A stretch of 64,000 nucleotides of DNA. It comes from a virus. Positions 10,892 to 37,578 of the stretch are shown piece after piece (the stretch's first letter is position 1; each line of letters begins with the position of its first letter). The stretch covers positions 37,798 to 101,797 of the IMG/VR virus record IMGVR_UViG_3300043788_000131; one strand, given 5' to 3'. Under the pieces are notes generated by a model, which worked only from the letters and a program-made list of their open reading frames with translations, ran no database searches and was not told where the DNA came from. Position numbers and translations under genes: made by a program.

Positions 10892-13699
10892 TTAGGACGC
10901 TATGAAGTTGTGCGCGCCTGCAAGGTGTCCGTATTCAAACAGATCGTATTTGATCATGCCCGCATCGGTGATGATCTCGATGATGACAATCGGCATCTGA
11001 GCAAGGTTGTCGCCAGCCATGGTGTTGTCGTAGTACCATTCCAAATAACCGAAGATCCAATCGCCTACGGCCATGGCAGGAAGCGAATCGCCAGTTACTG
11101 AGCCCGACCAAGAGCCGGCCGACCAGGATCGCACCCCCGCCGTCTTCACGTTCACGCCGAGGGTGCGGGCATACCCCACGAACGCGGGGGTGTAGCCCTG
11201 AAGCGAGTCGCAAAACAGATTTTCGGAGCCGTTGGCGCCGGTGTAGGCCCGCAGGACGTTGATATTGATCGACGTAAGCGTCCCTCGGACCTGCATGTTG
11301 TTCGTCGCGCCGAGGAGCGGGGACACGTTCCCCGTCAATACAATGTGCCCGTAAGTGAAGCCAGGACCCCCGTCGCGGCTCGGGTTGCTGCCCATCTGCC
11401 AGTTCTGAAGGAGGTGGTGACCGCGGCAATTCTTGACTGTGATCTTCGGATAGGGATGGACCGCGATGATAGAGGGCAACGGGAAAGCGCTGGGCAAGCT
11501 GCCCTGCGTCCAACTCGGCAAGCTGGTCAGCGTGGTGTCGATCAAGATATTTCCGGTGCCAGCGACGCCCGGCGTATCGCTGCGCACGTTCAGGACCGTG
11601 AAGAACGGCGGACTTTGAAAGAACCCGCCCTCGGAAAACGCGCACCGCACCCCAGGAGCCGCCCACGGCACGAGGCTGGCGGGGCCGGTATTTGGTATCG
11701 AAAAAGTGCCGTTGGAAAACGTAAATGCAGAAATGTTGTTGGCATTTCCGAAGGAGTTTCCCCATCCCGTGAAGCTGATCACGTCGACGTAGCTGTTCTC
11801 GATATAAATGCTTTCAAAGGGACCGTTGCTGCGCGGCCCCGGCGTCAAATTGCCGATATAGGAGTCTCTGATGTAGGTGTCCTTCGGCGTGCCGTTGAGA
11901 TTGCCGATGTTGCAGCCGTCGATGATCAGTTGCTGCACTGACGAGCTCTGGAATAGAAGGGTGTTGTAGTAGCCGGTGATCTCGCAATTTCGGAACGTCA
12001 GCCGCTCGATGCACTTGTCGACCTCGATGTCGCCGCCCCCCTGGATGAGGCAGTTCTCGAAGGTGATGGACTTTGCCTGTGACGGTATCGGGAAGTTGCT
12101 CGATTGCAGCCCCGGCCATTTGCAGTCCCGATAGTATTTGTTCATGACGGGCGGCATGTCGCTACCGCCGAGGAAGGTCACGCCAAAGCAGGAAACGTCG
12201 CACTCCCACTGGCCGCCGAACATCTTAGTCATGTTCCAGACCGTGGCCGGACCGCCTTCATTCACGCCGAAAGAGTTGGCCGTGTATGCCGGATAGGTGG
12301 ACAAATACGGACCACCTCGCAGATAACTGTTTAAGAAAATCACGCCGCCGCTGACGGTGGTTACCTGTACGAACTCCATGAAGTACGGATTAGGAGGGAT
12401 GCCGCCGGCCTCGATGTCGAGTGCGCCTAGCAGCAGCCAATCACCCACGCTGAATTTTGAAGCGTCGCCGGAGTTGACTAGAGTCAGTTGAGTACTGTTC
12501 TGGCCGGCGCTCTGCACTAGAGCGGAGTTTGCTGCCCCATATTGATCATTGGTTCCGCCGAACTGGTTCAGGTTCCCGCTCAGCGACGCGCCGTAGCCAA
12601 AGATGGTGAGCTTCTTAATTCCGCGCCACAGGCCGTTCGAGTTTGAAACTGAGGTGTACGTGCCCGGCGGAATATAAAGAGCGACTTCTTTGCCCTGATA
12701 GGCTTCGGTAAAGGCCTGGAAAGCGGCGCCATCATCGCCACCATTGCCCAGCGCGCCGAAATCTTTGATGTTCACCAAGCCGCCCGAGATCGCACTGGGG
12801 TTGACGTAAGTGAGCGGCGTCCAAAGAACGATCTGCGAGATCGGCGTGAAGCCGGCTGGAAGCGTCAATCCGGTGGCCGTTGGGTCTACCGTGGCCCCGT
12901 CGCCGTTGCGGGCGAACTGCCCGATGATCCGCGATGTCGTTACGTTTATAGTAAAGGTTACGCCGCCGGTGCCGGCTCCCGGATCGTTGGCGGGATCACC
13001 ATTCCAGCTTCCGCCGGGGGGCTTGACCCAAATCAGCTTCGCGACCGGATCAACCGCGACGTAATAGGTCCCGTTCGGGGTTGACCCCGTGTTTCTGTGT
13101 CCGTTTGGCGCTGGTGGCTGGGCGTTGTTTTCAAAGTAGTAGTAGCCCGTGCCGTCAGCATAGAACCCAATCCCGAGTCCGAGGTAGTCGAGAAACATCG
13201 CATTGCCGGTGGGATTCCCGTCAATGCCGATGCCGAACCCGGAACTGCCGTCGAGCACGGTGAAATTCTGACCGATGGCGAATACATATTTCTGAGCGGT
13301 TGGAAGCGTGCTTGCGCTCCTAACTCCCGCTACGCCCACATCACCCGTGACGATATTGGGATACGCGGCGTCTGATCTCTGCGCCGTCAGATTGGAATTA
13401 GAAAAGATGACGGCCGGATTCGAGAGGTTGGGCGACCACGCAAAAGACGGTATCCGAGCTAGCGAGATCAGTTGCGTAGTCGGGTTCCACCAAAGCTGCC
13501 CGGCCTGCAGAAAAACTGGCGCTATGGTCGAGATCGTAATACCGCCGCTGCCTGCGCCCGCGCCCGCATAGAGCTCGGTGAGCATTGCGTTCAGTTTGTC
13601 GACGGCCTCATTCCACTTGTCGCCGAACTCTTGGCCGAGGCCAGTGTTGGGGCCGCTGAATGGCTCGACAAGGTTCTTGTTGATGGTCTGCCGGGCCAT
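10892..13699 (-). CDS. Fibre/spike: anchor + SPRY-like domain + pectate-lyase-like beta-helix (depolymerase-like)
   Basis: GDKWNEAVDKLNAMLTELY anchor; VAVD..AKLIWVK...WNG...P.G SPRY-like segment; VNIKDFGALGNG.DDGAAFQA beta-helix start. Confidence 0.75.
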   Translation of the reverse strand: MARQTINKNLVEPFSGPNTGLGQEFGDKWNEAVDKLNAMLTELYAGAGAGSGGITISTIAPVFLQAGQLWWNPTTQLISLARIPSFAWSPNLSNPAVIFSNSNLTAQRSDAAYPNIVTGDVGVAGVRSASTLPTAQKYVFAIGQNFTVLDGSSGFGIGIDGNPTGNAMFLDYLGLGIGFYADGTGYYYFENNAQPPAPNGHRNTGSTPNGTYYVAVDPVAKLIWVKPPGGSWNGDPANDPGAGTGGVTFTINVTTSRIIGQFARNGDGATVDPTATGLTLPAGFTPISQIVLWTPLTYVNPSAISGGLVNIKDFGALGNGGDDGAAFQAFTEAYQGKEVALYIPPGTYTSVSNSNGLWRGIKKLTIFGYGASLSGNLNQFGGTNDQYGAANSALVQSAGQNSTQLTLVNSGDASKFSVGDWLLLGALDIEAGGIPPNPYFMEFVQVTTVSGGVIFLNSYLRGGPYLSTYPAYTANSFGVNEGGPATVWNMTKMFGGQWECDVSCFGVTFLGGSDMPPVMNKYYRDCKWPGLQSSNFPIPSQAKSITFENCLIQGGGDIEVDKCIERLTFRNCEITGYYNTLLFQSSSVQQLIIDGCNIGNLNGTPKDTYIRDSYIGNLTPGPRSNGPFESIYIENSYVDVISFTGWGNSFGNANNISAFTFSNGTFSIPNTGPASLVPWAAPGVRCAFSEGGFFQSPPFFTVLNVRSDTPGVAGTGNILIDTTLTSLPSWTQGSLPSAFPLPSIIAVHPYPKITVKNCRGHHLLQNWQMGSNPSRDGGPGFTYGHIVLTGNVSPLLGATNNMQVRGTLTSININVLRAYTGANGSENLFCDSLQGYTPAFVGYARTLGVNVKTAGVRSWSAGSWSGSVTGDSLPAMAVGDWIFGYLEWYYDNTMAGDNLAQMPIVIIEIITDAGMIKYDLFEYGHLAGAHNFIAS

Positions 13700-13709
13700 G
13701 GCACGCGCC

Positions 13710-14606
13710 CTAATCAGACCAGGACGTCGGATAGCCCCAGAAGCGATACCAGTCCGCCTTGAGCGTCTCGTAGAAGATGCGGTTGAGTGCTGCCGCCCAT
13801 GGCGGCGTGCCGCCGCTCCCGGCGTTTCCGCTCACGAAGATCGGCTGCTCTTTGATGTCGAACTGATTGTCGGCCCCGAGTCTGATCCCCTTGAACGTGC
13901 CAACGCTGGAGCCAACGCCGATATGGGCTTTGGTAGCACCGATCGGGAACAGCGTGCCGCAGTTGACGAAGTCGCAGAAGTCAACCGCGACGTTGAGGAT
14001 GTTCTGCCCGGCCCACGCCGGCTCCAGGTCGAGGTTCGACTGCCCGGCGTTGGAGAACGTGCTGTTGGTGATCTTCACCCCATTGACGTCGATCAGCGAC
14101 GCGTTCTGTCGGTAGTTGCTGTCGAACACGACGTCGTTGATCGTGAGGTTGCTGGCGCCGATGGCTGTGAGGCCGTCACCGAAGCATTGGCTGACGGTCA
14201 ATCCGCCGTTGATCGTGACGTTCTTCGCCGCCGGGCCAAGGCCGATGCCGAAGCCCCACTGCCCTGCCGCGCCGCGAACGACGGGGTTTCCTGCGCCGCG
14301 GTCGCCGATGATCTTGCCCTTCCCGGTGATGACAAGGCCGTCCACGTTCTGCGCGAGCAGGATGACGTAGTGATCGGCCGCATTCGGGATGGCCTGGAGC
14401 GTGCCGTCGATCTGGAACGTGATCCCCGACTTCAGGGCGATGCCTGTGCGGCTGCTATAGTAGAGAGTTGGGCTGGCGATCGGGTTGATCCGGCATGTCG
14501 TGGCCTCCGGCACCCGCACGGTGTCGCCAGCTTTCGCGGCGTTGACCGCCGCCTGGACCGCCGCGGTGTCGTCCGTACCGGCGCCATAGACGTTTATTAC
14601 AGACAT
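13710..14606 (-). CDS. Right-handed beta-helix (pectate-lyase-like) protein
   Basis: GAGTDDTAAVQAAVN, GQWGFGI, CFGDGL, NYRQN, LDLEP motifs. Confidence 0.8.
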   Translation of the reverse strand: MSVINVYGAGTDDTAAVQAAVNAAKAGDTVRVPEATTCRINPIASPTLYYSSRTGIALKSGITFQIDGTLQAIPNAADHYVILLAQNVDGLVITGKGKIIGDRGAGNPVVRGAAGQWGFGIGLGPAAKNVTINGGLTVSQCFGDGLTAIGASNLTINDVVFDSNYRQNASLIDVNGVKITNSTFSNAGQSNLDLEPAWAGQNILNVAVDFCDFVNCGTLFPIGATKAHIGVGSSVGTFKGIRLGADNQFDIKEQPIFVSGNAGSGGTPPWAAALNRIFYETLKADWYRFWGYPTSWSD

Positions 14607-14619
14607 TCGCCCGCTCCTT

Positions 14620-15018
14620 TTATGCTCCGCCGGAGCCCGGTGGCTCGTCGATCAGCCCGAGATCGACCGCGACGCTCTGCCCGTCCGGCCCCTGCTCCAT
14701 GAGAATGTCGAGCACCTCCTGGCGCTCTTTCTCGGTCATGTGCTGGTCGACGTTGACGCCCTCGTTGATGAAGGAGCGGACCTCCCGCATGAAAATATCG
14801 TAGGCGCGCACGCGAGCCTGAAACTCGCGAAACTCCTTCGCCTCGTACTCCTGATCGACCAGGGCTAGTGCGGCGAGGGCTTCGGCGGCCTCGCCGCGCA
14901 GGCGCCGGTAGACGTGCACGAACCAGCCCGGCGCGAGACTGGAAATCTCCGCTTCGAGTTCGGCGCTGTCTTTGATCAGTTTGAGTTCAGCAAGCGACGC
15001 AATCGGGTCGTCCGCCAT
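14620..15018 (-). CDS. Small helical head-assembly protein of the kind usually found right after the portal
   Basis: EAAEALAAL..VD...REFQARV...F...V..FINEG pattern; AAAGGAG-linked operon. Confidence 0.5.
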   Translation of the reverse strand: MADDPIASLAELKLIKDSAELEAEISSLAPGWFVHVYRRLRGEAAEALAALALVDQEYEAKEFREFQARVRAYDIFMREVRSFINEGVNVDQHMTEKERQEVLDILMEQGPDGQSVAVDLGLIDEPPGSGGA

Positions 15019-15019
15019 C

Positions 15020-15271
15020 TTAGCGCCCAGGCTTCGGCGGTATGTGCTGGTAGCGTTTTGGGTCGTAATGCCTGCTCAGCATCCTCGCCAAACCTCGTTC
15101 CAGTTGACCGTCAGTCATCTGGTCGACGGCACTCCAAATCGTGTTGGCGCCTTCGGCGCGAGTCCCTTGGTCGAACCATCTGCGGATGTCGTGATGCTCG
15201 ATGTGACTGAGTATTTCTTCGTAGATACCCTTCTCGCTCATCATCCAAGCTTTGTTGGCCTTCTCGCTCAT
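15020..15271 (-). CDS. Hypothetical protein
   Basis: ATGA-coupled to the repeat protein; strong RBS. Confidence 0.55.
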   Translation of the reverse strand: MSEKANKAWMMSEKGIYEEILSHIEHHDIRRWFDQGTRAEGANTIWSAVDQMTDGQLERGLARMLSRHYDPKRYQHIPPKPGR

Positions 15272-17943
15272 CCTCCCCCTCCTTTGATCCCCAGGGCCGC
15301 GAGCGCGCGTAGCGCGTCGGCCATGTCGTCTTCGTCTGTGTTCTGCTGCTGCGCCTGGGCGGCCTGGAGCGCGCGCACCGCGGCGATTGCGTCGCCGAGC
15401 TCACGGGCGTCGGCCATCTGCCGTGCGAGGCCTGCCGCATCCGGCGGCGTGTATTCGCGGAACGATGGCAGGCCGGCCGAGGTGACGATGCGCGGCGGTC
15501 CGCGGAATATCTCTTGCGGCGGAGGCTCGACCGGCGCGCGTGTGCCGGGCACCTGCGCGTTGCGGCGCCGCTCCTCTTCCCACTTGACGCGGTCCCAGAT
15601 CGGCCAGACCGGCGGCTTACGCTCCTCGACGTCCCACGGCGGCTGCGGGAATTGCTTCGGCAGGACGCGCTTGCCGCCGCCAGGAACGAGTGCGGCCGGG
15701 AAGATGACTACCTGCGGCGGCCAGCTTGCCCACTGCTGCTCGATCGCCGGGAACGGCTTGGTGAACCGATCGACCTCGTAGCCGCGCCAGCCGTCAGGAG
15801 TGAAGAACTTGACGAATTCCGGCAGCCACGCTGCCCATTGCTGTTCGTGGGCCGGCGGATAGTGCTTGGTGAAGACGTCAACTTCGTAGCCGCGCCATCC
15901 ATCCGGGAGGAGGCTGACAATCTTGCCTTGCGGTGTGAACGAGGACCATTGCTGTTCGCTTGCTGGCGGATAGTGCTTCGTGAAAGCGTCGGTCTCAAAC
16001 CCGCGCCAGCCTTCCGGCAAGGTGCTGAAGATCTTGGTCTGTGGGAACCAACTTGCTTGGGAAATAATGAAGATGCTGTGGAACGCCACGTCGCCCGACA
16101 TGACCGGAACGGGCACGATACTGGACGACACAGTCGGCCAAGCGTCCCACTTCTGATGGGCGACCGGGAACGGCTTCGCGAATATGTCGGTCTCGAAGCC
16201 CCGCCAACCTTCCGGGAAGGCGGTCGCGACGATCACAATCTTCTGTGCCGGCCATGGCGCCCATTGCTGTAGCGCGACCGGGAACGGCGTGACGAAGCGG
16301 TCTACCTCAAAGCCGCGCCAGCCCTCCGGGAATACCGAAGTGATGGTGCCGCGCGGCTCGAAGGCCTGGATATTCTGCTGCAGCGCCGCCGGGAACGGCT
16401 TGGCAAATCGCGGCGGCGGCTCGTTCCACGCTGTCAGAACCGTGTTGTACGGCGGGATTGTCGGCCAGGAATCGAAGCGCTGTTGTGCGGCGGCGAGCGG
16501 CTTCGTGAACCTGGGCGTCACCTCCTGCCATGCAGTGAGCACGGTGTTGTAGGGAGGTGTCGCCGGCCAGGAATCCCATTTCTGTTCGCTGGCCGGCGGG
16601 AATGCCTTGGCAAACCGATACTCGTGGGAGCCGCGCCAGCCCTCGACGAAAACGACGGTGCCGATCGTGCCTTGGGGCTCGAAAGCATCCCATCGCTGCT
16701 GTGCCGCGGGCAGTGGTGCCTTGAGGGCGTAATCGAGCTCGAAGGAATAGAAGTCGTTGAAGACCGGCGGCGTGAATGGCACCAGCGAAGTCTGCTGGTA
16801 GATGACGTAGTAGTCTGAGAACACACCGTCATCGAGGCCGCGCCAGCCTTCGGGGAACGCGACGGTGGCCGAAACCTGCTCTGCCGGCCAGCAATCCCAT
16901 TGCTGCCGGGCCGCCGGAACCGGGCTCTTGAAAGCGTAGTCGAGTTCGAATGAGTAGTAGTCGTTGAACGTCGGGGGCGTAAACGGCACCAAGCTAGTTT
17001 GCTGGTAGATCACGCACAGGTCAGAGAAAACGACATCGTCGAGGCCGCGCCAGCCTTCAGGGAAGGCCACGGTGGTTGGGAACGGGACAAAACTATCCCA
17101 TCGCTGCTGCGATGCCGGGAAGGCGACCTTGAATAGATCGACCTCGTACCCGCGCCAGCCCTCGAATGGAACGGAAATTACCGCTCCCTGGGGCTCGTAT
17201 GCGTCGAATTTCTGTTCCGCGATCGGGAACGGCTTGGCGAACTTGTAGTCCTGCTCGACCCAGGCCGTGAGCGCAGTGTTGAATAGGCCGAACGGCCATG
17301 CGTCCCAGCGCTGCTCGGTCACCGGGAATCGCGGTGCGAACCGCGGTGTCAGTTCTTCCCAGGCCGTAAGCACGGTGTTGTACGGCGGCAGCGAGGGCCA
17401 GGAATCGAACCGCTGTTCCGAGGCGGCAAATGACTTGGCGAACCGCGGCGTGAACTCTGCCCAGGCGGTCAGGACCGTGTTGTAGGGTGGCTGTGCCGTC
17501 CAGGACGCCCATTGCTGCTGCGCCGGGTTGAGCGGCGGTATCTTGTTGGCGTCTAGTTGGATACCGCGCCAGCCTTCGGGGAAGATGCTGACGATGGTGC
17601 CCGCGGGCTCGAAGCTCTCCCACTTCTGTTGGGCTGCGGCGAGCGGCACCTTGAAGGCATCGGTCTCAAAGCCGCGCCAGCCTTCCGGATTGACGACGGG
17701 GGTCGACACCGCCGGCACCACCAAGGTCGAGGCTTGCGATATAACAAAAATGTTATGAAAGCAGACATCACCGCCCATCGAGGGTACGGGGACGGGCGTC
17801 GGCGGCAACGCGATGAAACTGGTTGTCTGAACGATCACCGGCAACGTAACGACAACGTCGCTGACAATCTCAGGCGCAAGGCCCCCAGGTGGCGTCGGTG
17901 GCGGTGGTAGTATGCTGCCGATCGGGTAAAGGACTATACGCAT
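15268..17943 (-). CDS. 891-aa Trp/Pro/Phe-rich modular repeat protein (putative virion scaffold)
   Basis: 11 x (E/D)GWRG, 5 x NT(V/A)LTAW, 2 x FND(Y/F)YSFELDY, many F.K.FP..QQ.W units. Confidence 0.8.
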   Translation of the reverse strand: MRIVLYPIGSILPPPPTPPGGLAPEIVSDVVVTLPVIVQTTSFIALPPTPVPVPSMGGDVCFHNIFVISQASTLVVPAVSTPVVNPEGWRGFETDAFKVPLAAAQQKWESFEPAGTIVSIFPEGWRGIQLDANKIPPLNPAQQQWASWTAQPPYNTVLTAWAEFTPRFAKSFAASEQRFDSWPSLPPYNTVLTAWEELTPRFAPRFPVTEQRWDAWPFGLFNTALTAWVEQDYKFAKPFPIAEQKFDAYEPQGAVISVPFEGWRGYEVDLFKVAFPASQQRWDSFVPFPTTVAFPEGWRGLDDVVFSDLCVIYQQTSLVPFTPPTFNDYYSFELDYAFKSPVPAARQQWDCWPAEQVSATVAFPEGWRGLDDGVFSDYYVIYQQTSLVPFTPPVFNDFYSFELDYALKAPLPAAQQRWDAFEPQGTIGTVVFVEGWRGSHEYRFAKAFPPASEQKWDSWPATPPYNTVLTAWQEVTPRFTKPLAAAQQRFDSWPTIPPYNTVLTAWNEPPPRFAKPFPAALQQNIQAFEPRGTITSVFPEGWRGFEVDRFVTPFPVALQQWAPWPAQKIVIVATAFPEGWRGFETDIFAKPFPVAHQKWDAWPTVSSSIVPVPVMSGDVAFHSIFIISQASWFPQTKIFSTLPEGWRGFETDAFTKHYPPASEQQWSSFTPQGKIVSLLPDGWRGYEVDVFTKHYPPAHEQQWAAWLPEFVKFFTPDGWRGYEVDRFTKPFPAIEQQWASWPPQVVIFPAALVPGGGKRVLPKQFPQPPWDVEERKPPVWPIWDRVKWEEERRRNAQVPGTRAPVEPPPQEIFRGPPRIVTSAGLPSFREYTPPDAAGLARQMADARELGDAIAAVRALQAAQAQQQNTDEDDMADALRALAALGIKGGGG

Positions 17944-17959: not shown

Positions 17960-19000
17960 TTAGTAAGCGATGATCGGGGAGCGGCGGATCAAACCTCCCA
18001 TTTGGCTGCTGAAGCTCTGGAGTGGGGCTGGCACTATCGGCGAATAGGTGAGGACGAGGATGCCGGCGCCGGCATTGAAGGCGCCTGCTGCATTGGTTCC
18101 GAAGTTGCCGACACCACCTGAGCCACCGCCGTACAAACCGCCGTTACCGGGTTTGCCCGCATTGGTCGCGCCACCATTTCCACCCGATCCGCCGCCGCCG
18201 CCGCCTGGGCCGGCCGTTGCCGAGTTGGATGTCTGGGTCCAGAGATTGTTGGTCGCTCCGTCGCCGCCTGCGCCGTTTGTGGACGTGCCTGCATTGTTGA
18301 ATGGGCCACCACCACCGCCGCCAGATCCCGTTCCGGCCGTGCCAGCCGTACCAGCCCCGCCGGGGCCGCCGGCTGCGCCGCCAGGGCCGCCTCCTGATCC
18401 ACCTTGGCCGTTGCCTCCAGTTGTCCCGGATGAGTTGGTAGTGTTCCCTTGAGCGACACCGATTGATCCACCATTCGAGCCGCCACCGCCTGCGCCGCCG
18501 CTGGATGAGGAGGTAGTATCTCCGGTGGTCGATCCGCCGGCCGCGCCTACACCGCTAGGACCGCCCGCACCACCGCCGCCGGAGCCTGGTGAAGCATTGG
18601 CCGTTGTCGCAGCACCGCCAGCGCCGCCATTGTTGTTGGCTGTTGTGCCTGTGCCGCCTGAACCGCCAGCCGGTGCCGTGCCACTATTGAATGTCGCGCC
18701 ACCTCCACCAAAGGCTTTAGTGCCTACAGTTGCGTTGTCGTCTTTCAATATCTGAGTGAAGGTGCCAGCAGTTCCGTTAGTGCTGTATGATCCGGGCCCG
18801 CCAGCGCCGATTTGACAGGTGCGTGTAGCTCCCTGTGTGTAAGCTTGGTTCTGGTTTTTCCGATATTCGCCGCCGCCACCGCCGCAAGGAAACGAGCCGC
18901 CGCCGCCAGCGCCTACGCATTCAACGAAATTATTCGCCGAGTTCCAGTCACTCGGAATTACCGTAGTCAGGCCGCTGGTGATGAAAACAACGGTTGCCAT
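17960..19000 (-). CDS. Glycine-rich (polyglycine-II-like) virion protein
   Basis: VECVGAGGGG start, GGxGG runs, GAGILVLTY end; Thr/Ser/Asn-rich. Confidence 0.75.
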   Translation of the reverse strand: MATVVFITSGLTTVIPSDWNSANNFVECVGAGGGGSFPCGGGGGEYRKNQNQAYTQGATRTCQIGAGGPGSYSTNGTAGTFTQILKDDNATVGTKAFGGGGATFNSGTAPAGGSGGTGTTANNNGGAGGAATTANASPGSGGGGAGGPSGVGAAGGSTTGDTTSSSSGGAGGGGSNGGSIGVAQGNTTNSSGTTGGNGQGGSGGGPGGAAGGPGGAGTAGTAGTGSGGGGGGPFNNAGTSTNGAGGDGATNNLWTQTSNSATAGPGGGGGGSGGNGGATNAGKPGNGGLYGGGSGGVGNFGTNAAGAFNAGAGILVLTYSPIVPAPLQSFSSQMGGLIRRSPIIAY

Positions 19001-20700: not shown

Positions 20701-20703
20701 TTC

Positions 20704-21024
20704 TCACCCCATTACGATCGCGTCCGTGTCCATGCTGCGCTTGAAGTGCGGGTTCTCGGTGCAGCGGATCAGGTACATCTTGATTGGTAGTTGTTCGAGG
20801 ACCGCGGGATCGTTGCGCGATCTGATCCATTCGCCGACGCACCGCTCGATGGTTGCTATCAGCCATGGAATTTTCTCCCACGGCACCGGCTCCTCGACCT
20901 GCAGGCCCTCGATAACAAAGCAGAGTTCGTCGATGCGGGTGTGGTGGCAGAAGGCCTCTTTCTGATCCACGACGAAGCGCAAGCCGCCGTAGGGATCGAG
21001 GATGCCGCAAACGTCGCTCTTCAT
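20704..21024 (-). CDS. Hypothetical protein
   Basis: Tightly packed in operon. Confidence 0.55.
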   Translation of the reverse strand: MKSDVCGILDPYGGLRFVVDQKEAFCHHTRIDELCFVIEGLQVEEPVPWEKIPWLIATIERCVGEWIRSRNDPAVLEQLPIKMYLIRCTENPHFKRSMDTDAIVMG

Positions 21025-21168: not shown

Positions 21169-21170
21169 CG

Positions 21171-27415: not shown

Positions 27416-27430
27416 GCTATAGTCCGCTGA

Positions 27431-29187: not shown

Positions 29188-29350
29188 CGTCTCCCCCGTC
29201 CTCCTCTGCAAGTTTCGCCATCAGCAAAGCGACGGCGGCTTCGTCATCAGCACGCCGTCGCCGTTCGCGAGCTCGTTCGAGCAGCGCGGCGTAATCGGTG
29301 GCGTTCGGAATTTCGTAGGTGTCGAAGGTCGGCAGGCTCAGCCCGGTCAT
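29150..29350 (-). CDS. Small protein with RRRRADDEAAVALLM motif
   Basis: ATGA-coupled to the portal stop. Confidence 0.55.
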   Translation of the reverse strand: MTGLSLPTFDTYEIPNATDYAALLERARERRRRADDEAAVALLMAKLAEEDGGDDGGNGSDNPAGA

Positions 29351-32091: not shown

Positions 32092-32094
32092 CGG

Positions 32095-32403
32095 TTAGTC
32101 CGTGATGTTGTAGAAGCCCGTAATGACGCCGCTCGACCCCGTGCCCAGCGTGACCGCCGTCACCTGCAGATCAAATTGCCAGACGCCGATCGGGCATGAG
32201 CCCATGGTGACCGTGGTGCCATCGAGCATCGTGAAAGCAATGGTGGTCGCGACCGTGATGACGACGATGATCTTGGTCGGGATGGGCGTGTTGTATGTCG
32301 TTCCCGACGTCATCACGCCGATGGTGCCGTGCTTGGGCGAGACCGGGCGGCGGTCGGCCATCTGGCTTTGGACGAGAGGGGTCGTCACAGCAACAGTAGC
32401 CAT
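32095..32403 (-). CDS. Small Thr-rich beta structural protein
   Basis: AGGAG RBS; beta-strand pattern. Confidence 0.6.
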   Translation of the reverse strand: MATVAVTTPLVQSQMADRRPVSPKHGTIGVMTSGTTYNTPIPTKIIVVITVATTIAFTMLDGTTVTMGSCPIGVWQFDLQVTAVTLGTGSSGVITGFYNITD

Positions 32404-32412
32404 TGCGCGCTC

Positions 32413-32865
32413 CTATTCGGGGACTTTGAGCCAGGGCCTCACGAGGGCCGAATGTTTCTCGCGGGCGTCGAGGAATTCGCCGAGATTGAAGCGCTGGCGG
32501 CTCATGCCATAGCGTTCGAGCAACTCGCCGCCGGCACGCATCAGGAGGCCTTCGTCGAGCGGATCAGTCTTGAGGTTGATTGCCCACCAGCGATTGATCC
32601 CCATGAGGATCGGGATGTTGAAATAGGCCATGCCCTGCTGGCCGTCGTGCTTGGTGCGCCAAGTGACGCCGGGATAGTGCTTCTGCAGCACGCCCATCAT
32701 CCATTTGGCGCAGGCCATGTCCTGGGCGGCGTACTTGTCCTCGATGTGCTCGCCATCGGGACCGAATGGCGCCTCGTATTGGGTGCGCACGACGATGTCG
32801 TGGCCGGTTCCAAACACGCTTTTCGGCACCACCTGCTCATGCAAGGTGACAGCATCATCGGCCAT
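32413..32865 (-). CDS. Conserved-looking hypothetical protein upstream of portal
   Basis: L..HYPG..W...RAGGELLERY...R pattern. Confidence 0.6.
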   Translation of the reverse strand: MADDAVTLHEQVVPKSVFGTGHDIVVRTQYEAPFGPDGEHIEDKYAAQDMACAKWMMGVLQKHYPGVTWRTKHDGQQGMAYFNIPILMGINRWWAINLKTDPLDEGLLMRAGGELLERYGMSRQRFNLGEFLDAREKHSALVRPWLKVPE

Positions 32866-32882
32866 ACGCGGTACTCGAAATG

Positions 32883-32905
32883 AAAAGGCCGCCTTGCGGC
32901 GGCCT
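32883..32905 (-). terminator. Intrinsic terminator-like hairpin
   Basis: AGGCCGCC-GCAA-GGCGGCCT + TTTCATTT (GNRA loop). Confidence 0.75.
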
Positions 32906-32965
32906 CTCTGTTGGGCTTTGCGCCCGATCCGGGCTGTGGTGCCCGGTGTGTTCAGTCAGCGGCGA

Positions 32966-33349
32966 TCAGACAACGTCCGTCTCGTGATAGCGCCATGTGC
33001 CCGTCGCGCCGATGTAGTCGTAGCGGACGCTGGTGTGGGTCGCCATGGCGGCATTGGGTGGGAATACCGACAGCGATACCGTCCCATCGGTCTTATTGAC
33101 CGCTGTGATGATGGCCGCGATTGCCAAGCCCGTGCCGGCGTCCTGATAGAGGACCGGCTGGGTGACCTTGGGGCCAATCGTGCGCGCAACAACCATGTCG
33201 GCACTCGCAAATGATACGGGTTTGAGGCGATGTTTGTGTCGCGATTGCCGATCGGCCACTACCGCGGCCATCATGACCACCAGCAGGGTGAAAAGGATGA
33301 CGAGAGCTAGAGCCCAGATGAGGAGACTATTAGTCGGCTCTGGTCTCAC
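32966..33349 (-). CDS. Hypothetical protein, N-terminal TM plus small SH3-like domain
   Basis: AAIITAV...V.L.VFPP...GTWRY. Confidence 0.5.
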   Translation of the reverse strand: MRPEPTNSLLIWALALVILFTLLVVMMAAVVADRQSRHKHRLKPVSFASADMVVARTIGPKVTQPVLYQDAGTGLAIAAIITAVNKTDGTVSLSVFPPNAAMATHTSVRYDYIGATGTWRYHETDVV

Positions 33350-33506
33350 TTAGTCACCTCTAGCGGCTCCACGACCTCGAAGACGCTGTACGCATCGAGG
33401 GCAGTGTTGACGAGCCACCAAATATCCCCATTGACCATTGTCACACGGACCGTGCCGTCAACGACCTCGGTCGCACTAACGATGTGCTTGGGGTTGATGC
33501 GTGTCG

Positions 33507-33761
33507 TCATGTGATCTGGTACACTTTGCGACGCCGCCCGTACCAATAGACCGTGAATTTGCCGCTGTGGTCCGCACGTATCAGGTGGCCGTCGCGCCGG
33601 AGCTCGTAGATTCGAGCAGACAGCCGGTAGCAGCGGAACAACGCCAACGCCGTTGGCGCGTCAAGCGGATGACCGCCGTGCATGAGGTAAGCGAGGATTT
33701 TGAGTCTCTGGCTCATTTGCACTGCGGCGGCTTGCTCATATACCAAAGGAAGTCGGCCCAA
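33507..33761 (-). CDS. Winged-HTH DNA-binding protein
   Basis: ILAYL..G..L....AL..F.CYRLSARIYELRR.G..I. Confidence 0.75.
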   Translation of the reverse strand: MGRLPLVYEQAAAVQMSQRLKILAYLMHGGHPLDAPTALALFRCYRLSARIYELRRDGHLIRADHSGKFTVYWYGRRRKVYQIT

Positions 33762-33813
33762 CTGCCCTCACCATCCCACCAGAGCTCAAACATTCCCCAA
33801 TGTGAGATCGACC

Positions 33814-34791
33814 TCATTTGCGCTGCTCCGCGATCCAATCGAACGTCCGTTCCAGGCCCACACTGAAGGGCGTGCTGGCCCGCCATCCCAAGTGTTGCTC
33901 GGCCAGATCAGTGGCCACGAGAAGCTGCTGCTTCCCAATCGGGCCGGGCACGTGCTTGACCGTCAAGGTCTTGTTCGAGCGCGCGATCGCGAGTGCCGCG
34001 ATTTCGTCGCAAGTGGTCAATTCTTTGGTGGCTATGTTCACCGGACCGTCGAATGTAGTCGATCGCGCCAGTGCTGTAATCGCATCGAGTAGATCGTCAA
34101 TGAAAACAAGCGGCCGTATTTGTTTGCCGTCGCCCCAAACCTCGACCTCGCCGCCGTGAGGGGCGTCGAGGACCTTGCGGATGATTGCCGCAACGGCCTT
34201 CTCACGGCCATCATCGAAGCAGCCCCCAGGGCCGTAAATGGTTGAGAACCGCGTGATGCAGACATTCAGACCGTAATTGCGCTTGTGCGCGAGGTAGAGT
34301 TCCTCGCTAAAGAGTTTTTCCCAGCCGTAGGAGTTCGAGGGCGGCCCGATTCGTCCAGCATCCTCTTCTCTGAGACTAAGCGAGCAGTGCTGTGCCCACT
34401 GGTCTGCCATGAAATCGTTGTAGACGCAGGACGAGGACGTGTAGAGCAACCGCCCGCAGCCGACGCGACTGAAGGTGCGCGCGACATTAGTGTTTATGAG
34501 CACATTGTCGGCGATGACCTCGGCGTCGTGCTCGCCCGTGAAGATGTAGCCGGCGCCGCCCATGTTGGAGGCGCACTGGTACACCTCGTCGAACCCCCGG
34601 TCGTCGGCGGTGCTCGTCCAAGCCCGCATCGGATGCCGAAGGTCCACGCACTGGAAGTCGTCGCACTCGATCTCGCCGAATGGACTGTGGCGGATGTCCA
34701 CCGCGCGGACCCAATGGCCTTCGCTCTTGAGCTTGGCGCAGAGCGCCTTGCCGATGAAGCCGGCGGCGCCGAGAACGAGGGCGGTTTTCAT
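33814..34791 (-). CDS. NAD-dependent nucleotide-sugar epimerase (GDP-mannose 3,5-epimerase-like extended SDR)
   Basis: GAAGFIG, ASNMGGAGYI, SSSCVY, YGWEKLFSE (YxxxK), GREKA.AA..RK, VWGDG.Q.R. Confidence 0.9.
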   Translation of the reverse strand: MKTALVLGAAGFIGKALCAKLKSEGHWVRAVDIRHSPFGEIECDDFQCVDLRHPMRAWTSTADDRGFDEVYQCASNMGGAGYIFTGEHDAEVIADNVLINTNVARTFSRVGCGRLLYTSSSCVYNDFMADQWAQHCSLSLREEDAGRIGPPSNSYGWEKLFSEELYLAHKRNYGLNVCITRFSTIYGPGGCFDDGREKAVAAIIRKVLDAPHGGEVEVWGDGKQIRPLVFIDDLLDAITALARSTTFDGPVNIATKELTTCDEIAALAIARSNKTLTVKHVPGPIGKQQLLVATDLAEQHLGWRASTPFSVGLERTFDWIAEQRK

Positions 34792-35531
34792 GCTGCTTGC
34801 CCCAACGCGGCGAGGATCTCCCGCGGATCATTCTGGACGATGTTCAGGGCGCGCACTTGTTCGTCCCAGGTTGAAGGGAACGGCTTGGAATAGTCGATCT
34901 CGACGCCTTCGCAGTCGTTAAATCTGCCAACAATCCCCAGCCCCGTTGGCGGGCAAGCCACGGTGAACGCGATCAGATCCCAGCGTTGCTCAACGATCGC
35001 CGCCATCACACGCCACGCATCCCCCGTATGAAAGGACACACCCTCGGCTTTCGGCTGGGCGGTGCGTTCGTCCATGGGGATGATGTCGTGCAGGCAGATG
35101 ATCGACGATCCCTTGGCAAGCCTTTCAAGGGTCAGGAAGTCTTTCCTCACCTGGGCCGCCGCGTGATCACCGTCAATCAAGGCCAGATCGAAGCCGAAGC
35201 ATCGCATCCGGTTCTTCTCGATCGAGAAAAAGTCGTCCGAGGTTGTCACCCCCACAAGCGTGTTTGGCCGCGGCTCCATCTGAGGTGCGGGGTCGATACC
35301 GACTACACGGGTCTCCGGCAGCGCCAGCCTGACGGTGTCGCCTCGCCGGACGCCGATCTCGACGTAGAGTTCGGGGTGTAAAATGTTGTGAAACGTCGAA
35401 AGCAGCGCGCGATAGTCTGGGCCAGGGAGCTTGAGATAGGCCAGGGCCTCGTAGCCGAGGTGATCGTGGATCGGAGCCGAGGCCAGCGTGTGCGCAATGC
35501 GCTCGCAGAGTTCAGCCTGCCGCTTGTACAT
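34788..35531 (-). CDS. Class I SAM methyltransferase (Methyltransf_24-like)
   Basis: YVEIGV..G, GIDP, TSDDFF, DLALIDGDH, ICLHD, TGDAWR. Confidence 0.85.
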   Translation of the reverse strand: MYKRQAELCERIAHTLASAPIHDHLGYEALAYLKLPGPDYRALLSTFHNILHPELYVEIGVRRGDTVRLALPETRVVGIDPAPQMEPRPNTLVGVTTSDDFFSIEKNRMRCFGFDLALIDGDHAAAQVRKDFLTLERLAKGSSIICLHDIIPMDERTAQPKAEGVSFHTGDAWRVMAAIVEQRWDLIAFTVACPPTGLGIVGRFNDCEGVEIDYSKPFPSTWDEQVRALNIVQNDPREILAALGQAA

Positions 35532-36921
35532 TTGCTTCCTCGGTGACGGGAGTAAGCAAGTCGCCCGCCGCACCCTTATACTCCTTGCGGCCGGCGTGGA
35601 TTATTGATGCGTAGGGGTCCAGCCAGATTTCGCCGCCGATGGCCTGCCAGCGTTGACAGAACGAGAAGTCCTCGCTCAGGCGCTCGGGGAGTTCTTGGCC
35701 CGCGCGCTTCCACATCAGGTCGAAAAACAGCGCCCACTCGCGGCCGTGGCCGTCTGTGTTGTACTCAAGCTCCGGGTAGGCCTCGCACATCTTTTCGACG
35801 ACAGATCGCTTGAGCACGACGAAGGCGAAGCCCACATGCCGCACCTTCATGAACTTGGTATGAGGATGAAGGATTTGTGTGCCGGTGATTGCGTTGTAGC
35901 AGGGCGACACTTCGTCGGTTTTCTTGACCCCGGCGATCGCCGCAAAATCGTGATCGGAGCCGATCAGGCGAATGAGGAGATTGGGCTCCCAGCCCATGTC
36001 ATCGTCAATGAAGGCGATGTGGGTGGCGTCCGGCATGGCCTTGAGGCCATTCCAAAGCAAATGCTCCCTGCCCTTGCCGATATGAGAAGAGCCGCTTTGC
36101 TGCTGGACGCGATAGCTGATCCGCTTGGCGGCGAGGGCCGACAATGTGTGAGTGAAGCTATGGTGATAGACGATGTCGACCGTATGGTTCTGGATCGGCG
36201 TCAGCAGCAGCAGTCGCACCTTCGAGAAATCCGGGGTTGAGATCGTCACTCCCAACAGGGCGGCAACGCGCTCGACTTGCTGCCGGCGCTCGTCGCTATT
36301 GCGCCATTCGGCGTAAAGCTTGGTGTCCTCGTCGAAGTCGCGCGAGCCGCGTTGGTATGTGGCGTCCCTCCCGGCGAGGGGAGTGCCGCTGAAAATCGGG
36401 TGATGGTGCTCGACGATCACGTCCTCAAGCGGGACCAGCAGCTTGAAGTCTTGTGCGAACGAACCCCAGGTGTCGTCGGAGTAGTTGTGACGCATCTTGC
36501 CGGGGGCGATGGTGCCGATCGCGCGCGCCAGATCGCCGCCCATGACGCGGCATGTGTACGGGGACGGGAAGTTTTGGCGGTTGTTGGCGATGGCGATCTT
36601 GGTGGAGCCGGCCGCCTCGACCATCTTGTCGAACCAAGCGGGGGTGATCGGCCAATAATCGTCGTCGATGATGCCGTAATAAGGCTCATCCCCCATCCGG
36701 ATGAACGCAGTTCGCACTGCCTCGCAGAAGCGCGACCCAGCTAGCACGACGAGGAGCCGCCATGTGCTAGGCCAAAATCCGCGCGCTTGCCGCTCGACAT
36801 ACTGGTCGTATGCCGGATCGTCCTGATTAACGAGGATCGCCAGATCGGCCGGCATTCCCCCAGGCGCCCCGAGCATCTTGCCGGGGGCGTCTGGGCGACC
36901 GTAGGAAGGCATTAGCCACAT
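35512..36921 (-). CDS. Two-domain GT-A (GT2-like) glycosyltransferase
   Basis: Domain 1 PSYGRP...IIDDD...HNYSDD...EHHHP; domain 2 THIAFIDDDMGW...VGFAF...LSEDFSFC.RW..IGG.IW.D...H.G. Confidence 0.85.
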   Translation of the reverse strand: MWLMPSYGRPDAPGKMLGAPGGMPADLAILVNQDDPAYDQYVERQARGFWPSTWRLLVVLAGSRFCEAVRTAFIRMGDEPYYGIIDDDYWPITPAWFDKMVEAAGSTKIAIANNRQNFPSPYTCRVMGGDLARAIGTIAPGKMRHNYSDDTWGSFAQDFKLLVPLEDVIVEHHHPIFSGTPLAGRDATYQRGSRDFDEDTKLYAEWRNSDERRQQVERVAALLGVTISTPDFSKVRLLLLTPIQNHTVDIVYHHSFTHTLSALAAKRISYRVQQQSGSSHIGKGREHLLWNGLKAMPDATHIAFIDDDMGWEPNLLIRLIGSDHDFAAIAGVKKTDEVSPCYNAITGTQILHPHTKFMKVRHVGFAFVVLKRSVVEKMCEAYPELEYNTDGHGREWALFFDLMWKRAGQELPERLSEDFSFCQRWQAIGGEIWLDPYASIIHAGRKEYKGAAGDLLTPVTEEANVQAAG

Positions 36922-36957
36922 GAGGGGCGAGGTACTCCGATGCCGGTTAAGGGCCGG

Positions 36958-37578
36958 TTACGGGTAGAATTCCACCGTGAACCCGAGCAGTGAGACGTTA
37001 TTCGTCGCCGCCGAGGCATCCGCGCACGTCACGGTGATATTGAAGGTGCCGGTGATGGCGACCGAGTCCGTCCCGGCCTTGTTCGCGAGCGGGGACGTGC
37101 CCGAGCCGAAGCCCGAGAGCCAGTAGTTCTCGGCGGTGGCGCTCGTGCAAAGGTAATTGCCGTCGAGTTGCCAAGCGAAGGCCGCGCCGGTCACGGTGCC
37201 GGTAGTGATCTGGGCCGCACCCATCGCCAGGGCGATGGTCTTGGGCGCCGCGTTGTTGGCGACGGTGCCCCAGGCCATGACGCCAAGCTCCTGGCCGGGC
37301 GTCGTGAAAGTGTTGGCCGGGACAGTGTAGGACTGGAGGGTCTGCGTGGTGTTCGTGCCGACCGAATTCACGGTCGCCGTCAACTTGGCAATGTTGCCCG
37401 CCGCGCCGAAGGTCGCCGTACCAGCGCCTGCGACCAGACCACCGCCGTACAGGTCGGTGAACATCGCATTGAGCTTGCTGACGGCGACGTTCCAGGTATC
37501 GCCTTGCTCGACCGAGGTGCCGAGGTTCGGCGGGCCGATCGGCTCGACGGAGTTGCTGTTGATTACTTGCTTTGCCAT
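36958..37578 (-). CDS. Virion protein with the same N-terminal anchor as the 935-aa spike
   Basis: MAKQVINSN.VEP...GDTWN.AV.KLNAMFTDLY; SYTVPANT beta-sandwich. Confidence 0.7.
   Translation of the reverse strand: MAKQVINSNSVEPIGPPNLGTSVEQGDTWNVAVSKLNAMFTDLYGGGLVAGAGTATFGAAGNIAKLTATVNSVGTNTTQTLQSYTVPANTFTTPGQELGVMAWGTVANNAAPKTIALAMGAAQITTGTVTGAAFAWQLDGNYLCTSATAENYWLSGFGSGTSPLANKAGTDSVAITGTFNITVTCADASAATNNVSLLGFTVEFYP

Follow-up and report, generated by a model that had tools for sequence, protein, structure and literature searches.

Sugar-modifying enzymes in the head operon of a soil phage: a candidate FlmG-like system for glycosylating protein

Why would a phage keep a set of sugar-modifying enzymes among the genes that build its head, and what do those enzymes modify? 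We addressed this question in a 64,000-nucleotide stretch (the window) of an uncultured, podophage-like soil phage of ~102 kb, whose genome is 96% complete. The portal, terL and major capsid protein genes frame the enzyme block:

29347-32091, minus strand: portal, SU10 type (SU10_portal PF23899, 6.5e-33; phrog_1216)
40008-42044: terL (phrog_38)
8356-9348, minus strand: major capsid protein, MCP (phrog_1357 major head protein, 1.4e-9; weak Phage_capsid matches)
9388-10806, minus strand: putative scaffold, by position and Ala-rich composition only

An initial annotation had placed six enzymes amid these head genes. All six are confirmed, each on the minus strand:

33814-34791, minus strand: SDR, a GDP-mannose 3,5-epimerase homologue (Pfam Epimerase PF01370, 1.9e-41)
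34788-35573, minus strand: class I SAM methyltransferase, Methyltransf_24 (PF13578, 2.1e-7, over the curated cut-off); likely start 35531
35512-36921, minus strand: double GT-A glycosyltransferase, 469 aa (phrog_14945 and phrog_1574; GT2/Anp1-like halves)
27616-29211, minus strand: TPR-GT1, N-terminal TPR and C-terminal GT-B (GT9-like) domains (Pfam TPR families; GT9 21.7 bits); likely start 29178, giving 520 aa
24041-25411, minus strand: TPR-GT2, TPR and GT-B (GT9-like) domains (Pfam TPR families; GT9 21.1 bits)
22670-23455, minus strand: FkbM-family methyltransferase (PF05050 5.8e-14; TIGR01444 1.1e-20)

The identities first proposed for the epimerase-like SDR, the Methyltransf_24 enzyme, the two TPR+GT9-like enzymes and FkbM were borne out by Pfam, PDB and TIGR matches and by an AF2 model. 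The top solved relatives of the epimerase are the plant GDP-mannose 3,5-epimerases (PDB 2c59/8sg0; 1e-53, with the next family at 8e-19), and its catalytic columns SSxC, YxxxK and GREK align. The TPR matches of the two TPR-GTs are strong; their GT9 scores fall just below the Pfam cut-off of 22 bits, and a profile search of the GT domain against PDB gave an E of only ~0.2. Foldseek of the AF2 model of this domain (m570fc0f139f1; pLDDT 88) found GT9 heptosyltransferases as the best matches: WaaF (8.9e-9), then 3tov and WaaC. TPR-GT2 is ~24-29% identical to TPR-GT1-type proteins and ranks second when the genome is searched with the GT-domain profile (5.1e-84). Phage and bacterial TPR-GTs share the invariant columns EQGxGD, D..H and W..W, which we regard as putative donor-binding or catalytic-type positions.

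The double GT-A has no Pfam match. Its reading as a two-domain enzyme nevertheless holds: the N half (residues 3-192) matches phrog_14945 'glycosyltransferase' (2.7e-11), the C half (231-448) matches phrog_1574 (2e-23), a DxD-like motif is invariant in either half (DDD and DxD columns), and the structure-atlas neighbours are viral GT2/Anp1 clusters (TM 0.86 for the C half). Its ~60 homologues (42-74% identity) are all metagenomic, on contigs of up to ~100 kb, and distant matches bear PF03452 or PF00535.

No membrane segment is predicted in any of the six enzymes, and a membrane-bound transferase, flippase or ligase is likewise absent. The six are soluble, which fits direct glycosylation in the cytoplasm. 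Embedded in the head operon is thus the coherent set that had been claimed, with enzymes to make, attach, extend and methylate a sugar.

The enzyme core is kept, together with portal and terminase, in at least six related phage contigs. Identities in these relatives are 48-58% for GT-A, 47-49% for TPR-GT1, 67-75% for the epimerase (L001, L100, L103) and 57-67% for the portal; the scaffold is 39-42% identical and the MCP 80-98% over the covered parts. Homologues of the Methyltransf_24 enzyme (54-60%) hold the same position in L001 and L103, and TPR-GT2 has orthologues (43-64%) in L001, L003 and L103. In all related contigs that span this part of the operon, TPR-GT1 is found downstream of the portal, with ~5 kb of other ORFs between the two in L100. 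The variable ORFs between the core enzymes are replaced. Such a GT domain occurs in only 7 of 50,697 GenBank phage records. MW202512 has the order capsid, two small ORFs, TPR-GT, endonuclease gene, FkbM, and in Synechococcus phage BUCT-ZZ01 the TPR-GT comes after tail-fibre and BNR genes, so independent GenBank phages also carry a TPR-GT amid structural genes.

What do enzymes of this class modify? Among the best 79 of at least 560 bacterial TPR-GT matches, the TPR-GTs form multi-copy arrays. Flagellin, FliS or FliD is encoded within 8 kb in 12 of these 79 loci, spread over many phyla, and in eight loci flagellin is at most 702 bp away. No flagellar gene is nearby in the other 67, so acceptors are not uniform across the family. 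FkbM points to similar company: along its entire length, the phage enzyme shares 40-42% identity with FkbM proteins beside TPR-GTs in the Comamonadaceae loci L039, L041 and L081. L039 and L041 contain flagellin or FliD/FliS, L039 additionally has type-I-secretion-like ORFs, and in L081 the FkbM/TPR-GT locus includes a 2069-aa repeat protein. In L049 the TPR-GT match falls within an 826-aa ORF that also has a match to FkbM. The published enzyme FlmG binds flagellin through its TPR domain and transfers the sugar with its GT-B domain (PMC7591256; bioRxiv 10.1101/2022.03.25.485807). The phage TPR-GTs share this TPR and GT-B layout, and we liken them to FlmG by design and by the flagellin linkage of their bacterial relatives. 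Because bacterial members of the class adjoin flagellin genes, protein glycosylation is the best reading, and the evidence points to FlmG-like protein O-glycosylation over modification of DNA or of a lipid-linked glycan.

If protein is modified, which protein? Gene position suggests candidates around TPR-GT2 and FkbM:

25474-25941, minus strand: conserved head-module protein, 155 aa (in L001, L003 and L103; family of 790 clusters)
22371-22673, minus strand: Zn-ribbon-like multi-Cys protein, 100 aa, constant partner of the 155-aa family (consensus CxxC pairs)
23625-24194, minus strand: conserved small cassette protein, ~145-190 aa, start uncertain (homologue in L103)

The 155-aa gene, FkbM and TPR-GT2 occur together in four genomes (the window phage, L001, L003 and L103), and searches of L002, L100 and L101 revealed none of them. 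Over 66 IMG/VR loci holding a member of the 155-aa family, the gene sits between the capsid gene (~-4.2 kb) and an SU10-type adaptor (~+3.5 kb), and 61 have a Zn-ribbon homologue on the same strand (median offset +554 nt). A same-strand TPR-GT is present in 17 of the 66, at most ~3.3 kb downstream in all cases but L155 (~6 kb upstream). In the 155-aa tree two deep clades are wholly GT-linked (8/8 and 10/10). Just 3-4 changes explain the linkage on this tree, which means that common descent accounts for much of the co-occurrence; moreover, three quarters of the loci have no TPR-GT, so the 155-aa protein does not need glycosylation. It has no relative in PHROG or PDB, and its AF2 model reaches a pLDDT of only 45. 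Going by gene position, we infer that the strongest candidate for an acceptor, or a partner, of the TPR-GT2/FkbM cassette is the 155-aa protein. The small cassette protein matches no family; its L103 homologue (50% identical) also lies between TPR-GT2 and FkbM. ORFs in the same position in L001 and L003 resemble it in size and position only.

Could the target of glycosylation instead belong to the infected host, be it flagellin, pilin, an adhesin or a surface polysaccharide? No flagellin homologue is encoded in the 96%-complete phage genome, the bacterial relatives adjoin flagellin and type-I-secreted repeat proteins, and phage glycosyltransferase clusters are usually read as modifying host outer polysaccharides (PMC7824862). 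However, the phage enzymes are encoded within the head operon and kept along with portal and terminase, and phages with unrelated backbones repeatedly have a TPR-GT next to a head-module protein. The lack of a membrane-bound transferase, flippase or ligase also argues against a host target, and flagellin modification late in the lytic cycle would have little time. We therefore consider a host target unlikely, though worth weighing.

The initial annotation had proposed other acceptors: Gly/Ser/Thr-rich proteins, with the methylated glycans forming a coat on capsid appendages. The chief acceptors would then be two proteins with 30% Gly. The ORFs concerned are interleaved with the enzymes:

10892-17943, minus strand: fibre/spike-like block (weak PF12708, PF13229 and phrog_2234 tailspike matches), comprising the next four proteins and small ORFs
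10892-13699, minus strand: 935-aa protein, weak pectate-lyase-like (beta-helix) match
13710-14606, minus strand: beta-helix protein, 298 aa (weak match)
14620-15018, minus strand: protein conserved in L001, L003, L100 and L101
15268-17943, minus strand: Trp/Pro repeat protein, 891 aa, conserved in L001 and L003
17960-20700, minus strand: two extreme Gly-rich, paralogue-like proteins and a 175-aa ORF between them
26735-27415 and 26080-26733, minus strand: two adjacent variable fibre-like cargo genes with a shared leader
36958-37578, minus strand: Thr/Ala-rich, fibre-like protein of 206 aa; its gene always immediately precedes that of the double GT-A

Twelve interleaved ORFs do reach a G+S+T content of at least 26% (11-21% in the enzymes, portal and terL), which upholds the count of more than ten, but only two, 17960-19000 and 19621-20700, are extreme (G+S+T 53-55%, Gly 30-32%). 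This pair has no Pfam, PHROG or NCBIfam match, and tblastn found no homologue in any relative. Compositionally similar large ORFs occupy the same region in every relative; one, the 495-aa, 36%-Gly ORF L003:16191-17678, resembles the pair in composition and N-terminal motif. Yet fibres and spikes in general are rich in G/S/T and poor in Arg, and no lectin or acceptor motif emerged from Pfam and PHROG searches; the 'lectin-fold' label gave way to the weak matches at 10892-13699 and 13710-14606. Most other interleaved ORFs also have no homologue in the enzyme-keeping relatives L001, L103, L100 and L101. The region is hypervariable even against L099, whose TPR-GT1 is 94% identical. The genes at 26080-27415, which match no family, share the leader MQ..VRR.R.IGNFENAGG ahead of unrelated bodies; L099 retains the leader, followed there by an ORF with only a weak match to the bodies. 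Judged by sequence, the interleaved stretch is a hypervariable fibre/spike region. The enzymes are conserved with head genes, but the Gly-rich genes do not follow, and it is the 155-aa gene, which had not been singled out initially, that co-varies with TPR-GT2 and FkbM. Since the Gly-rich pair is not conserved where the enzymes are, its members are strain-specific cargo and not required acceptors, and their role as the system's own substrates is distinctly doubtful.

The 206-aa protein is better conserved, with homologues adjoining GT-A in L001/L083, L002/L084, L003/L086 and L103. Its N-terminal ~45 residues are shared with the start of the 935-aa protein. The start codon is the ATG at 37578, preceded by an RBS-like GAAAGGAAAG; a terminator-like hairpin lies nearby (37620-37604).

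TPR proteins are often chaperones, and TPR-GT1 has no obvious conserved small partner among the relatives. It is nonetheless very unlikely that the TPR-GTs serve as chaperones or adaptors in assembly, or that their substrate is a small molecule or a non-structural phage protein, given their invariant donor-binding and catalytic-type columns and the co-conserved sugar-nucleotide and methylation genes. TPR arms are protein-binding modules, the TPR-GT relatives are linked to flagellin and not to DNA metabolism, and the genes, as argued initially, sit in the head operon, all of which speaks against glycosylation or methylation of phage DNA or nucleotides as a shield from restriction. Despite weak PHROG 'DNA methyltransferase' matches (Methyltransf_24 4.7e-4; GT-A N half 2.5e-4) and known DNA-hypermodifying phage glycosyltransferases (Pyle et al. 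2024, as cited in PMC12619734), this is extremely improbable because the 96%-complete genome has no thymidylate-synthase-type hydroxymethylase homologue. It likewise has no NeuB, which speaks against nonulosonic-acid chemistry.

We propose, with a probability of roughly 55%, that the locus encodes cytoplasmic FlmG-like protein O-glycosylation, most likely of the phage's own virion protein or proteins. The TPR arm of each TPR+GT-B enzyme would hold a folded or nascent phage protein while the GT9-like domain attaches the initial sugar to Ser or Thr, and the double GT-A may then extend the glycan. The epimerase homologue would supply an unusual GDP-L-hexose from host GDP-mannose, and FkbM and the Methyltransf_24 enzyme would yield O-methylated sugars. 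Gene position would make the adjacent 155-aa protein the leading acceptor for the TPR-GT2/FkbM cassette and the 206-aa protein next to GT-A a second candidate. Should the target be a host protein instead, as it could be, the modification may mask a receptor and so exclude superinfection, or keep progeny off debris.

The window makes up the right-hand 64 kb of one 101,797-bp IMG/VR virus record, which CheckV places at 96% completeness. Its G+C content is ~62%, and nearly every gene between 1 and 52 kb lies on the minus strand. Read from high to low coordinates, the late operon comprises the large terminase, an endonuclease VII-like gene, a hairpin, a block of predicted glycosylation genes, a putative scaffold and the major capsid protein:

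40008-42044, minus strand: large terminase (phrog_38, 1.4e-35)
38177-38740: endonuclease VII-like gene, between the terminase and the glycosylation block (phrog_2633, 2.1e-18)
37620-37604: strong terminator-like hairpin, just upstream of the 206-aa gene
36958-37578, minus strand: 206-aa protein
35512-36921, minus strand: double GT-A glycosyltransferase
34788-35573, minus strand: Methyltransf_24 enzyme
33814-34791, minus strand: epimerase homologue
29347-32091, minus strand: portal, SU10 type
27616-29211, minus strand: TPR-GT1
25474-25941, minus strand: 155-aa protein
24041-25411, minus strand: TPR-GT2
22670-23455, minus strand: FkbM methyltransferase
22371-22673, minus strand: ~100-aa multi-Cys (Zn-ribbon) protein
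9388-10806: putative scaffold
8356-9348: major capsid protein

The nearest GenBank relatives of the portal, from Vibrio podophages, are only 31% identical, and the phage therefore belongs to a new, uncultured lineage. Words of its genome are found in small shares in four soil metagenome DNA runs; no RNA run was among the runs listed in this search. Sigma-70-like promoter matches number 0 at window positions 20000-39999, against 4.6 ± 2.1 in shuffles.

Each of the six enzymes named in the initial annotation was recovered at the coordinates listed here, and none contains a hydrophobic segment. Two of them, TPR-GT1 and TPR-GT2, match TPR_1, TPR_2, TPR_12 and related families over residues ~10-230 (1e-13 to 1e-17). 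Their GT9 matches (Pfam PF01075) reach 21.7 and 21.1 bits over ~30-45 residues, below the 22-bit gathering cut-off, and a profile of the GT domain finds GT9 among PDB sequences only at E ~0.2. Because these matches are sub-threshold, we modelled the catalytic domain with AF2 from a 24-row alignment (pLDDT 88) and searched the model with Foldseek. The top matches are all GT-B enzymes. The best are GT9 heptosyltransferases: WaaF (1psw, 8.9e-9), then 3tov and WaaC, with TM 0.54-0.63 by query length; the protein heptosyltransferase TibC ranks 13th (TM 0.45). The N-terminal GD and C-terminal D(T/S)xxxH motifs align with 3tov, and their columns are invariant. Waa enzymes, whose catalytic fold and GD and D(T/S)..H motifs resemble those of the phage proteins in spite of marginal sequence similarity (Pfam 21-22 bits), modify lipid A-core and lack the TPR arm.

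In the GT41 enzymes OGT and SPINDLY a TPR arm likewise precedes a GT-B catalytic domain, which acts on proteins, and the TPR part of the phage enzymes is most similar, among natural solved proteins, to the OGT and SPINDLY TPRs. However, the resemblance to OGT is confined to that part. Pfam finds no Glyco_transf_41 (GT41) match in either TPR-GT, and the listed Foldseek matches of the catalytic domain do not include OGT. Membership of GT41 was rejected.

The sole sugar-nucleotide gene of the phage encodes an extended SDR. Its best solved relatives, over residues 6-323, are plant GDP-mannose 3,5-epimerases (2c59 and 8sg0, 1e-53), with GDP-fucose synthase, the next solved family, far behind at 8e-19. 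The SSxC, YGxEK and GREKA stretches align with the solved epimerases and keep Ser, Cys, Tyr, Lys and Lys columns that we take to be catalytic. The label 'two-domain GT-A' given earlier to 35512-36921 is fair: a DxD-type motif is invariant in each half across 21 homologues, the N-terminal half matches a PHROG glycosyltransferase family, and the Atlas neighbours are viral GT2/Anp1 clusters. Pfam gives this protein no match, and its profile retrieves only GlfT2 from PDB sequences (E 0.08). The Methyltransf_24 assignment comes from Pfam, a sequence search with that protein alone having returned nothing useful, and the second methyltransferase is a clear FkbM (PF05050, 53 bits against a cut-off of 22.7; TIGR01444, 74.5 against 37.7).

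Where do such enzymes occur in bacteria? The GT domain has ~40 phage-like homologues (45-82% identity, contigs up to ~100 kb) and hundreds of bacterial ones (30-40% identity) annotated merely as 'tetratricopeptide repeat protein'. We extracted and clustered all ORFs in the 8-kb flanks of 79 bacterial loci, the best 79 of at least 560 matches. TPR-GTs form arrays there (194 ORFs in the 79 loci), and the recurrent neighbours, confirmed by Pfam, are flagellin (11), FliS (7), FliD (4) and FkbM (3). A flagellar-filament gene is present in 12 of the 79, across at least eight phyla, and in 8 of those 12 the distance from flagellin to a TPR-GT is at most 702 bp. Aligned along its whole length, the phage FkbM shares 40-42% identity with FkbM genes adjoining TPR-GTs in three Comamonadaceae loci (L039, L041 and L081). 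L039 and L041 hold flagellar-filament genes, L039 also has ORFs resembling a type I secretion system, and L081 carries a 2069-aa repeat protein. An 826-aa ORF of a planctomycete (L049:7893-10370) matches FkbM and spans the TPR-GT match. This linkage of the relatives to flagellin, FliS, FliD and FkbM points to the TPR-GT and FkbM pair being a bacterial protein-glycosylation module acquired by the phage lineage.

Two TPR-GTs and two FkbM genes lie with type-I-secretion-like ORFs, a repeat protein or flagellin/FliD/FliS at L081:12-17239 and L039:122-13337. Besides flagellin, the substrates of the bacterial family may include secreted repeat adhesins.

By domain design and the gene context of their relatives, the phage TPR-GTs can be likened to the FlmG class of Caulobacter crescentus and Brevundimonas subvibrioides, whose TPR domain is the flagellin-binding part and whose GT-B domain both transfers the sugar and determines which donor is used (PMC7591256; bioRxiv 10.1101/2022.03.25.485807). 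Both have N-terminal TPRs and a C-terminal soluble GT-B domain. FlmG acts in the cytoplasm and its gene lies beside that of its acceptor, just as genes for flagellin, FliS or FliD adjoin some bacterial relatives of the phage enzymes. The differences are equally clear. The phage TPR arm is ~170-230 aa long, against 313 in FlmG. Flagellin was not found in the phage genome, so that the linkage seen in the FlmG class and in 12 of 79 bacterial loci is missing from the phage. The sugar gene is a GDP-mannose epimerase homologue, and a nonulosonic-acid pathway of the FlmG kind was rejected on finding no NeuB-family synthase in the genome; the donors of FlmG-type enzymes, CMP-pseudaminic or CMP-legionaminic acid, could be supplied by the host.

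Single-sequence IMG/VR scans with TPR-GT1 and with the portal gave no match, and the relatives of the phage were recovered by alignment-based scans: three IMG/VR contigs (81, 87 and 97 kb), plus four metagenome contigs that proved informative. Gene order is conserved from terminase, 206-aa gene and GT-A through portal and TPR-GT1 to scaffold and capsid, the whole stretch being found in no single locus. The enzymes are about as conserved as the portal and terminase (GT-A 48-58% identity, TPR-GT1 47-49%, epimerase 67-75%). L001 and L103 have the Methyltransf_24 gene; L001, L100 and L103 have the epimerase; L002 and L003 have neither. In two relatives (L100:20210-21468 and L101:9751-11586) the capsid gene aligns to that of the window piecewise, at 85-98% identity with gaps of ~230-940 nt; an intron, an intein or a homing-endonuclease insert may split it.

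The stretch from the TPR-GTs to the scaffold gene is hypervariable. No homologue of the Gly-rich proteins (17960-19000 and 19621-20700), of a pair of leader-sharing proteins or of most other interleaved ORFs occurs in the relatives, which carry different large G/S/T-rich, Arg-poor ORFs in their place; one, in L003, is 36% Gly and has the N-terminal motif of the window's Gly-rich proteins. The leader-sharing pair (within 26080-27415) are neighbouring genes with a common MQ..VRR.R.IGNFENAGG leader and unrelated bodies. In L099, a contig whose TPR-GT1 is 94% identical, the next gene is matched mainly in this 22-residue leader (L099:2693-2818), and the bodies are matched weakly. A common leader with exchanged bodies suggests plug-in exchange of receptor-binding cargo.

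The initial annotation had taken the interleaved proteins, described as Gly/Ser/Thr-rich or lectin-fold, for the substrates of the enzymes. The composition is real in part: G+S+T reaches at least 26% in twelve interleaved ORFs, but only two are extreme (30-32% Gly). No lectin or SPRY family was detected among them, and two proteins weakly match beta-helix/pectate-lyase families. The evidence does not support the Gly-rich proteins as substrates. The enzymes persist in relatives that lack these variable-region proteins, which therefore cannot be the required substrate set. The expected synteny survives for TPR-GT1 and GT-A, kept with the portal and terminase, and fails for the Gly-rich proteins, which are replaced. 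The variable region is, to judge from its sequence, probably the fibre or spike cargo of the phage, with a composition generic for such proteins.

Among the few conserved genes of this region is that of an 891-aa Trp/Pro repeat protein (15268-17943; also in L001 and L003). The 206-aa protein and a 935-aa beta-helix protein (10892-13699) have a common ~45-residue N-terminus, MA(K/R)Q.IN.N.VEP...LNAM.T(D/E)LY, that is found in all relatives and looks like a docking domain for two different appendages.

A more constant partner is the 155-aa protein. Its gene, FkbM, TPR-GT2 and the ~100-aa multi-Cys protein co-occur in the window, L001, L003 and L103, the last of which also has a clear homologue of a ~150-aa protein of the window; none of the four was found in L002, L100 or L101. 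In L002 the second TPR-GT is a different one, and the ORF before it resembles the 155-aa protein marginally (E 0.019). The 155-aa profile retrieves 790 clusters (50% identity) from 1.84 billion representatives, all ~150-165 aa long. No PHROG match was found for any of 47 members, the profile matches nothing among PDB sequences, and a single GenBank phage record matches it. The AF2 model of the protein, built from four sequences, has a pLDDT of 45 and no usable fold, and the complex prediction with TPR-GT2 scored 0.00, which counts neither for nor against binding.

An IMG/VR scan with a narrow alignment of the 155-aa family gave 66 loci, whose neighbouring ORFs we clustered. Of these diverse loci, 61 encode a multi-Cys protein that contains several CxxC pairs, usually directly downstream, and the two proteins are a tightly linked head-module pair without a PHROG family. 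A capsid protein lies ~4 kb upstream in 18 of the 66 and an SU10-type adaptor ~3.5 kb downstream in 14. A TPR-GT is found on the same strand in 17, at most ~3.3 kb downstream except in L155 (~6 kb upstream), and FkbM in 8. In other phages, a 292-aa Trp/Pro-rich protein lies ~2.3 kb downstream of the 155-aa gene (23 of the 66 loci).

On the 155-aa tree, GT linkage fills two deep clades (8 of 8 and 10 of 10 members) with different gene orders, requiring 3-4 changes in total. The association is therefore old and stable and did not arise independently many times. Ser/Thr enrichment at positions 62 (19 of 20 GT-linked members against 11 of 47) and 48 (16 of 20 against 7 of 47) was discounted as evidence of acceptor sites, because the GT-linked members form these two clades and the test ignores relatedness.

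Among GenBank phages the enzyme is rare, with a GT-domain homologue in just 7 of 50,697 records, and two of the seven have it among structural genes. The capsid gene of MW202512 is followed by two small ORFs, then by TPR-GT, an endonuclease gene and FkbM, the small ORFs not being detectable as members of the 155-aa or Zn-ribbon families; in Synechococcus phage BUCT-ZZ01 the TPR-GT follows tail-fibre and BNR genes. The cultured Synechococcus phage S-SRM01 is a further carrier with a TPR-GT amid structural genes.

We consider protein glycosylation the likely role of these enzymes, and a virion protein a plausible target. The earlier proposal of virion glycosylation is partly supported, without its Gly-rich substrates. 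What the analysis shows directly is the class, solubility and conservation of the enzymes, their synteny, and the linkage of their relatives to flagellin; the mechanism that follows is proposed. In the cytoplasm, the TPR arms would hold a phage protein, on whose Ser or Thr residues the GT9-like domains would begin O-glycans. The epimerase homologue would provide a GDP-L-hexose, with GDP-L-galactose or GDP-L-gulose expected, from host GDP-mannose, the double GT-A would extend the glycans, and the two methyltransferases would cap the sugars. The first candidate acceptor is the 155-aa head-module protein. The second is the 206-aa protein, which always precedes GT-A and may be anchored through the N-terminus that it has in common with the spike-like 935-aa protein.

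The same enzymes could possibly be aimed at the host, at flagellin, pili, adhesins or LPS, and phage glycosyltransferase clusters are by default read as host-directed (PMC7824862). Modification of DNA is unlikely, because the 96%-complete genome has no match to the thymidylate-synthase family (PF00303) that includes hydroxymethylases, a search whose control hit 10 of 14 genomes.

As a candidate for virion glycosylation, the system is a variant not described before. Experimental proof of glycosylated particles is, to our knowledge, confined to a few mycobacteriophages and to giant algal viruses. The chlorovirus PBCV-1 encodes, independently of its host, a cytoplasmic pathway made up of sugar-nucleotide enzymes, GT-A transferases and a methyltransferase domain, and its capsid protein bears methylated sugars. 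This giant virus of eukaryotes carries N-linked glycans on its major capsid protein and has no TPR-GT-B enzyme. The phage kit thus resembles that of PBCV-1 in its sugar-nucleotide enzyme, GT-A and predicted sugar methylation, and differs in its TPR-GT-B proteins. For the mycobacteriophages Che8, Corndog and Myrna, virion glycosylation has been proven by mass spectrometry, with capsid and tail-tube C-termini modified in actinobacteriophages, according to Freeman et al. 2023 as cited in PMC12619734. Like the phages of that account, ours encodes soluble glycosyltransferases expected to glycosylate its own capsid-associated proteins. Unlike them, it has TPR-fused GT9-like enzymes and a separate candidate acceptor of 155 aa.

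The 155-aa/Zn-ribbon pair is widespread (790 clusters) yet essentially absent from cultured phages. One idea, which we hold only tentatively and think rather doubtful, is that the pair would be a dedicated capsid-surface 'glycan carrier' of environmental phages to which FlmG-like TPR-GTs have been recruited repeatedly, much as flagellin is served by FlmG. Virion glycosylation would then be common and unrecognised in soil phages of Gram-negative-type hosts, with an acceptor family of its own.

If the proposed mechanism is true, a clade of ~100-kb soil phages has appropriated a cytoplasmic O-glycosylation system of the flagellin type, as have, via the 155-aa/Zn-ribbon module, other uncultured phage lineages. 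Sugar-coated virions would then be much commoner than thought, which matters for the stability and adsorption of phages, their aggregation in soil matrices and immune recognition in therapy. The analysis names a concrete family of candidate acceptors and a cassette of three genes (155-aa protein, TPR-GT and FkbM), and it suggests that members of the large, uncharacterised TPR+GT9-like family of bacteria are protein glycosyltransferases.
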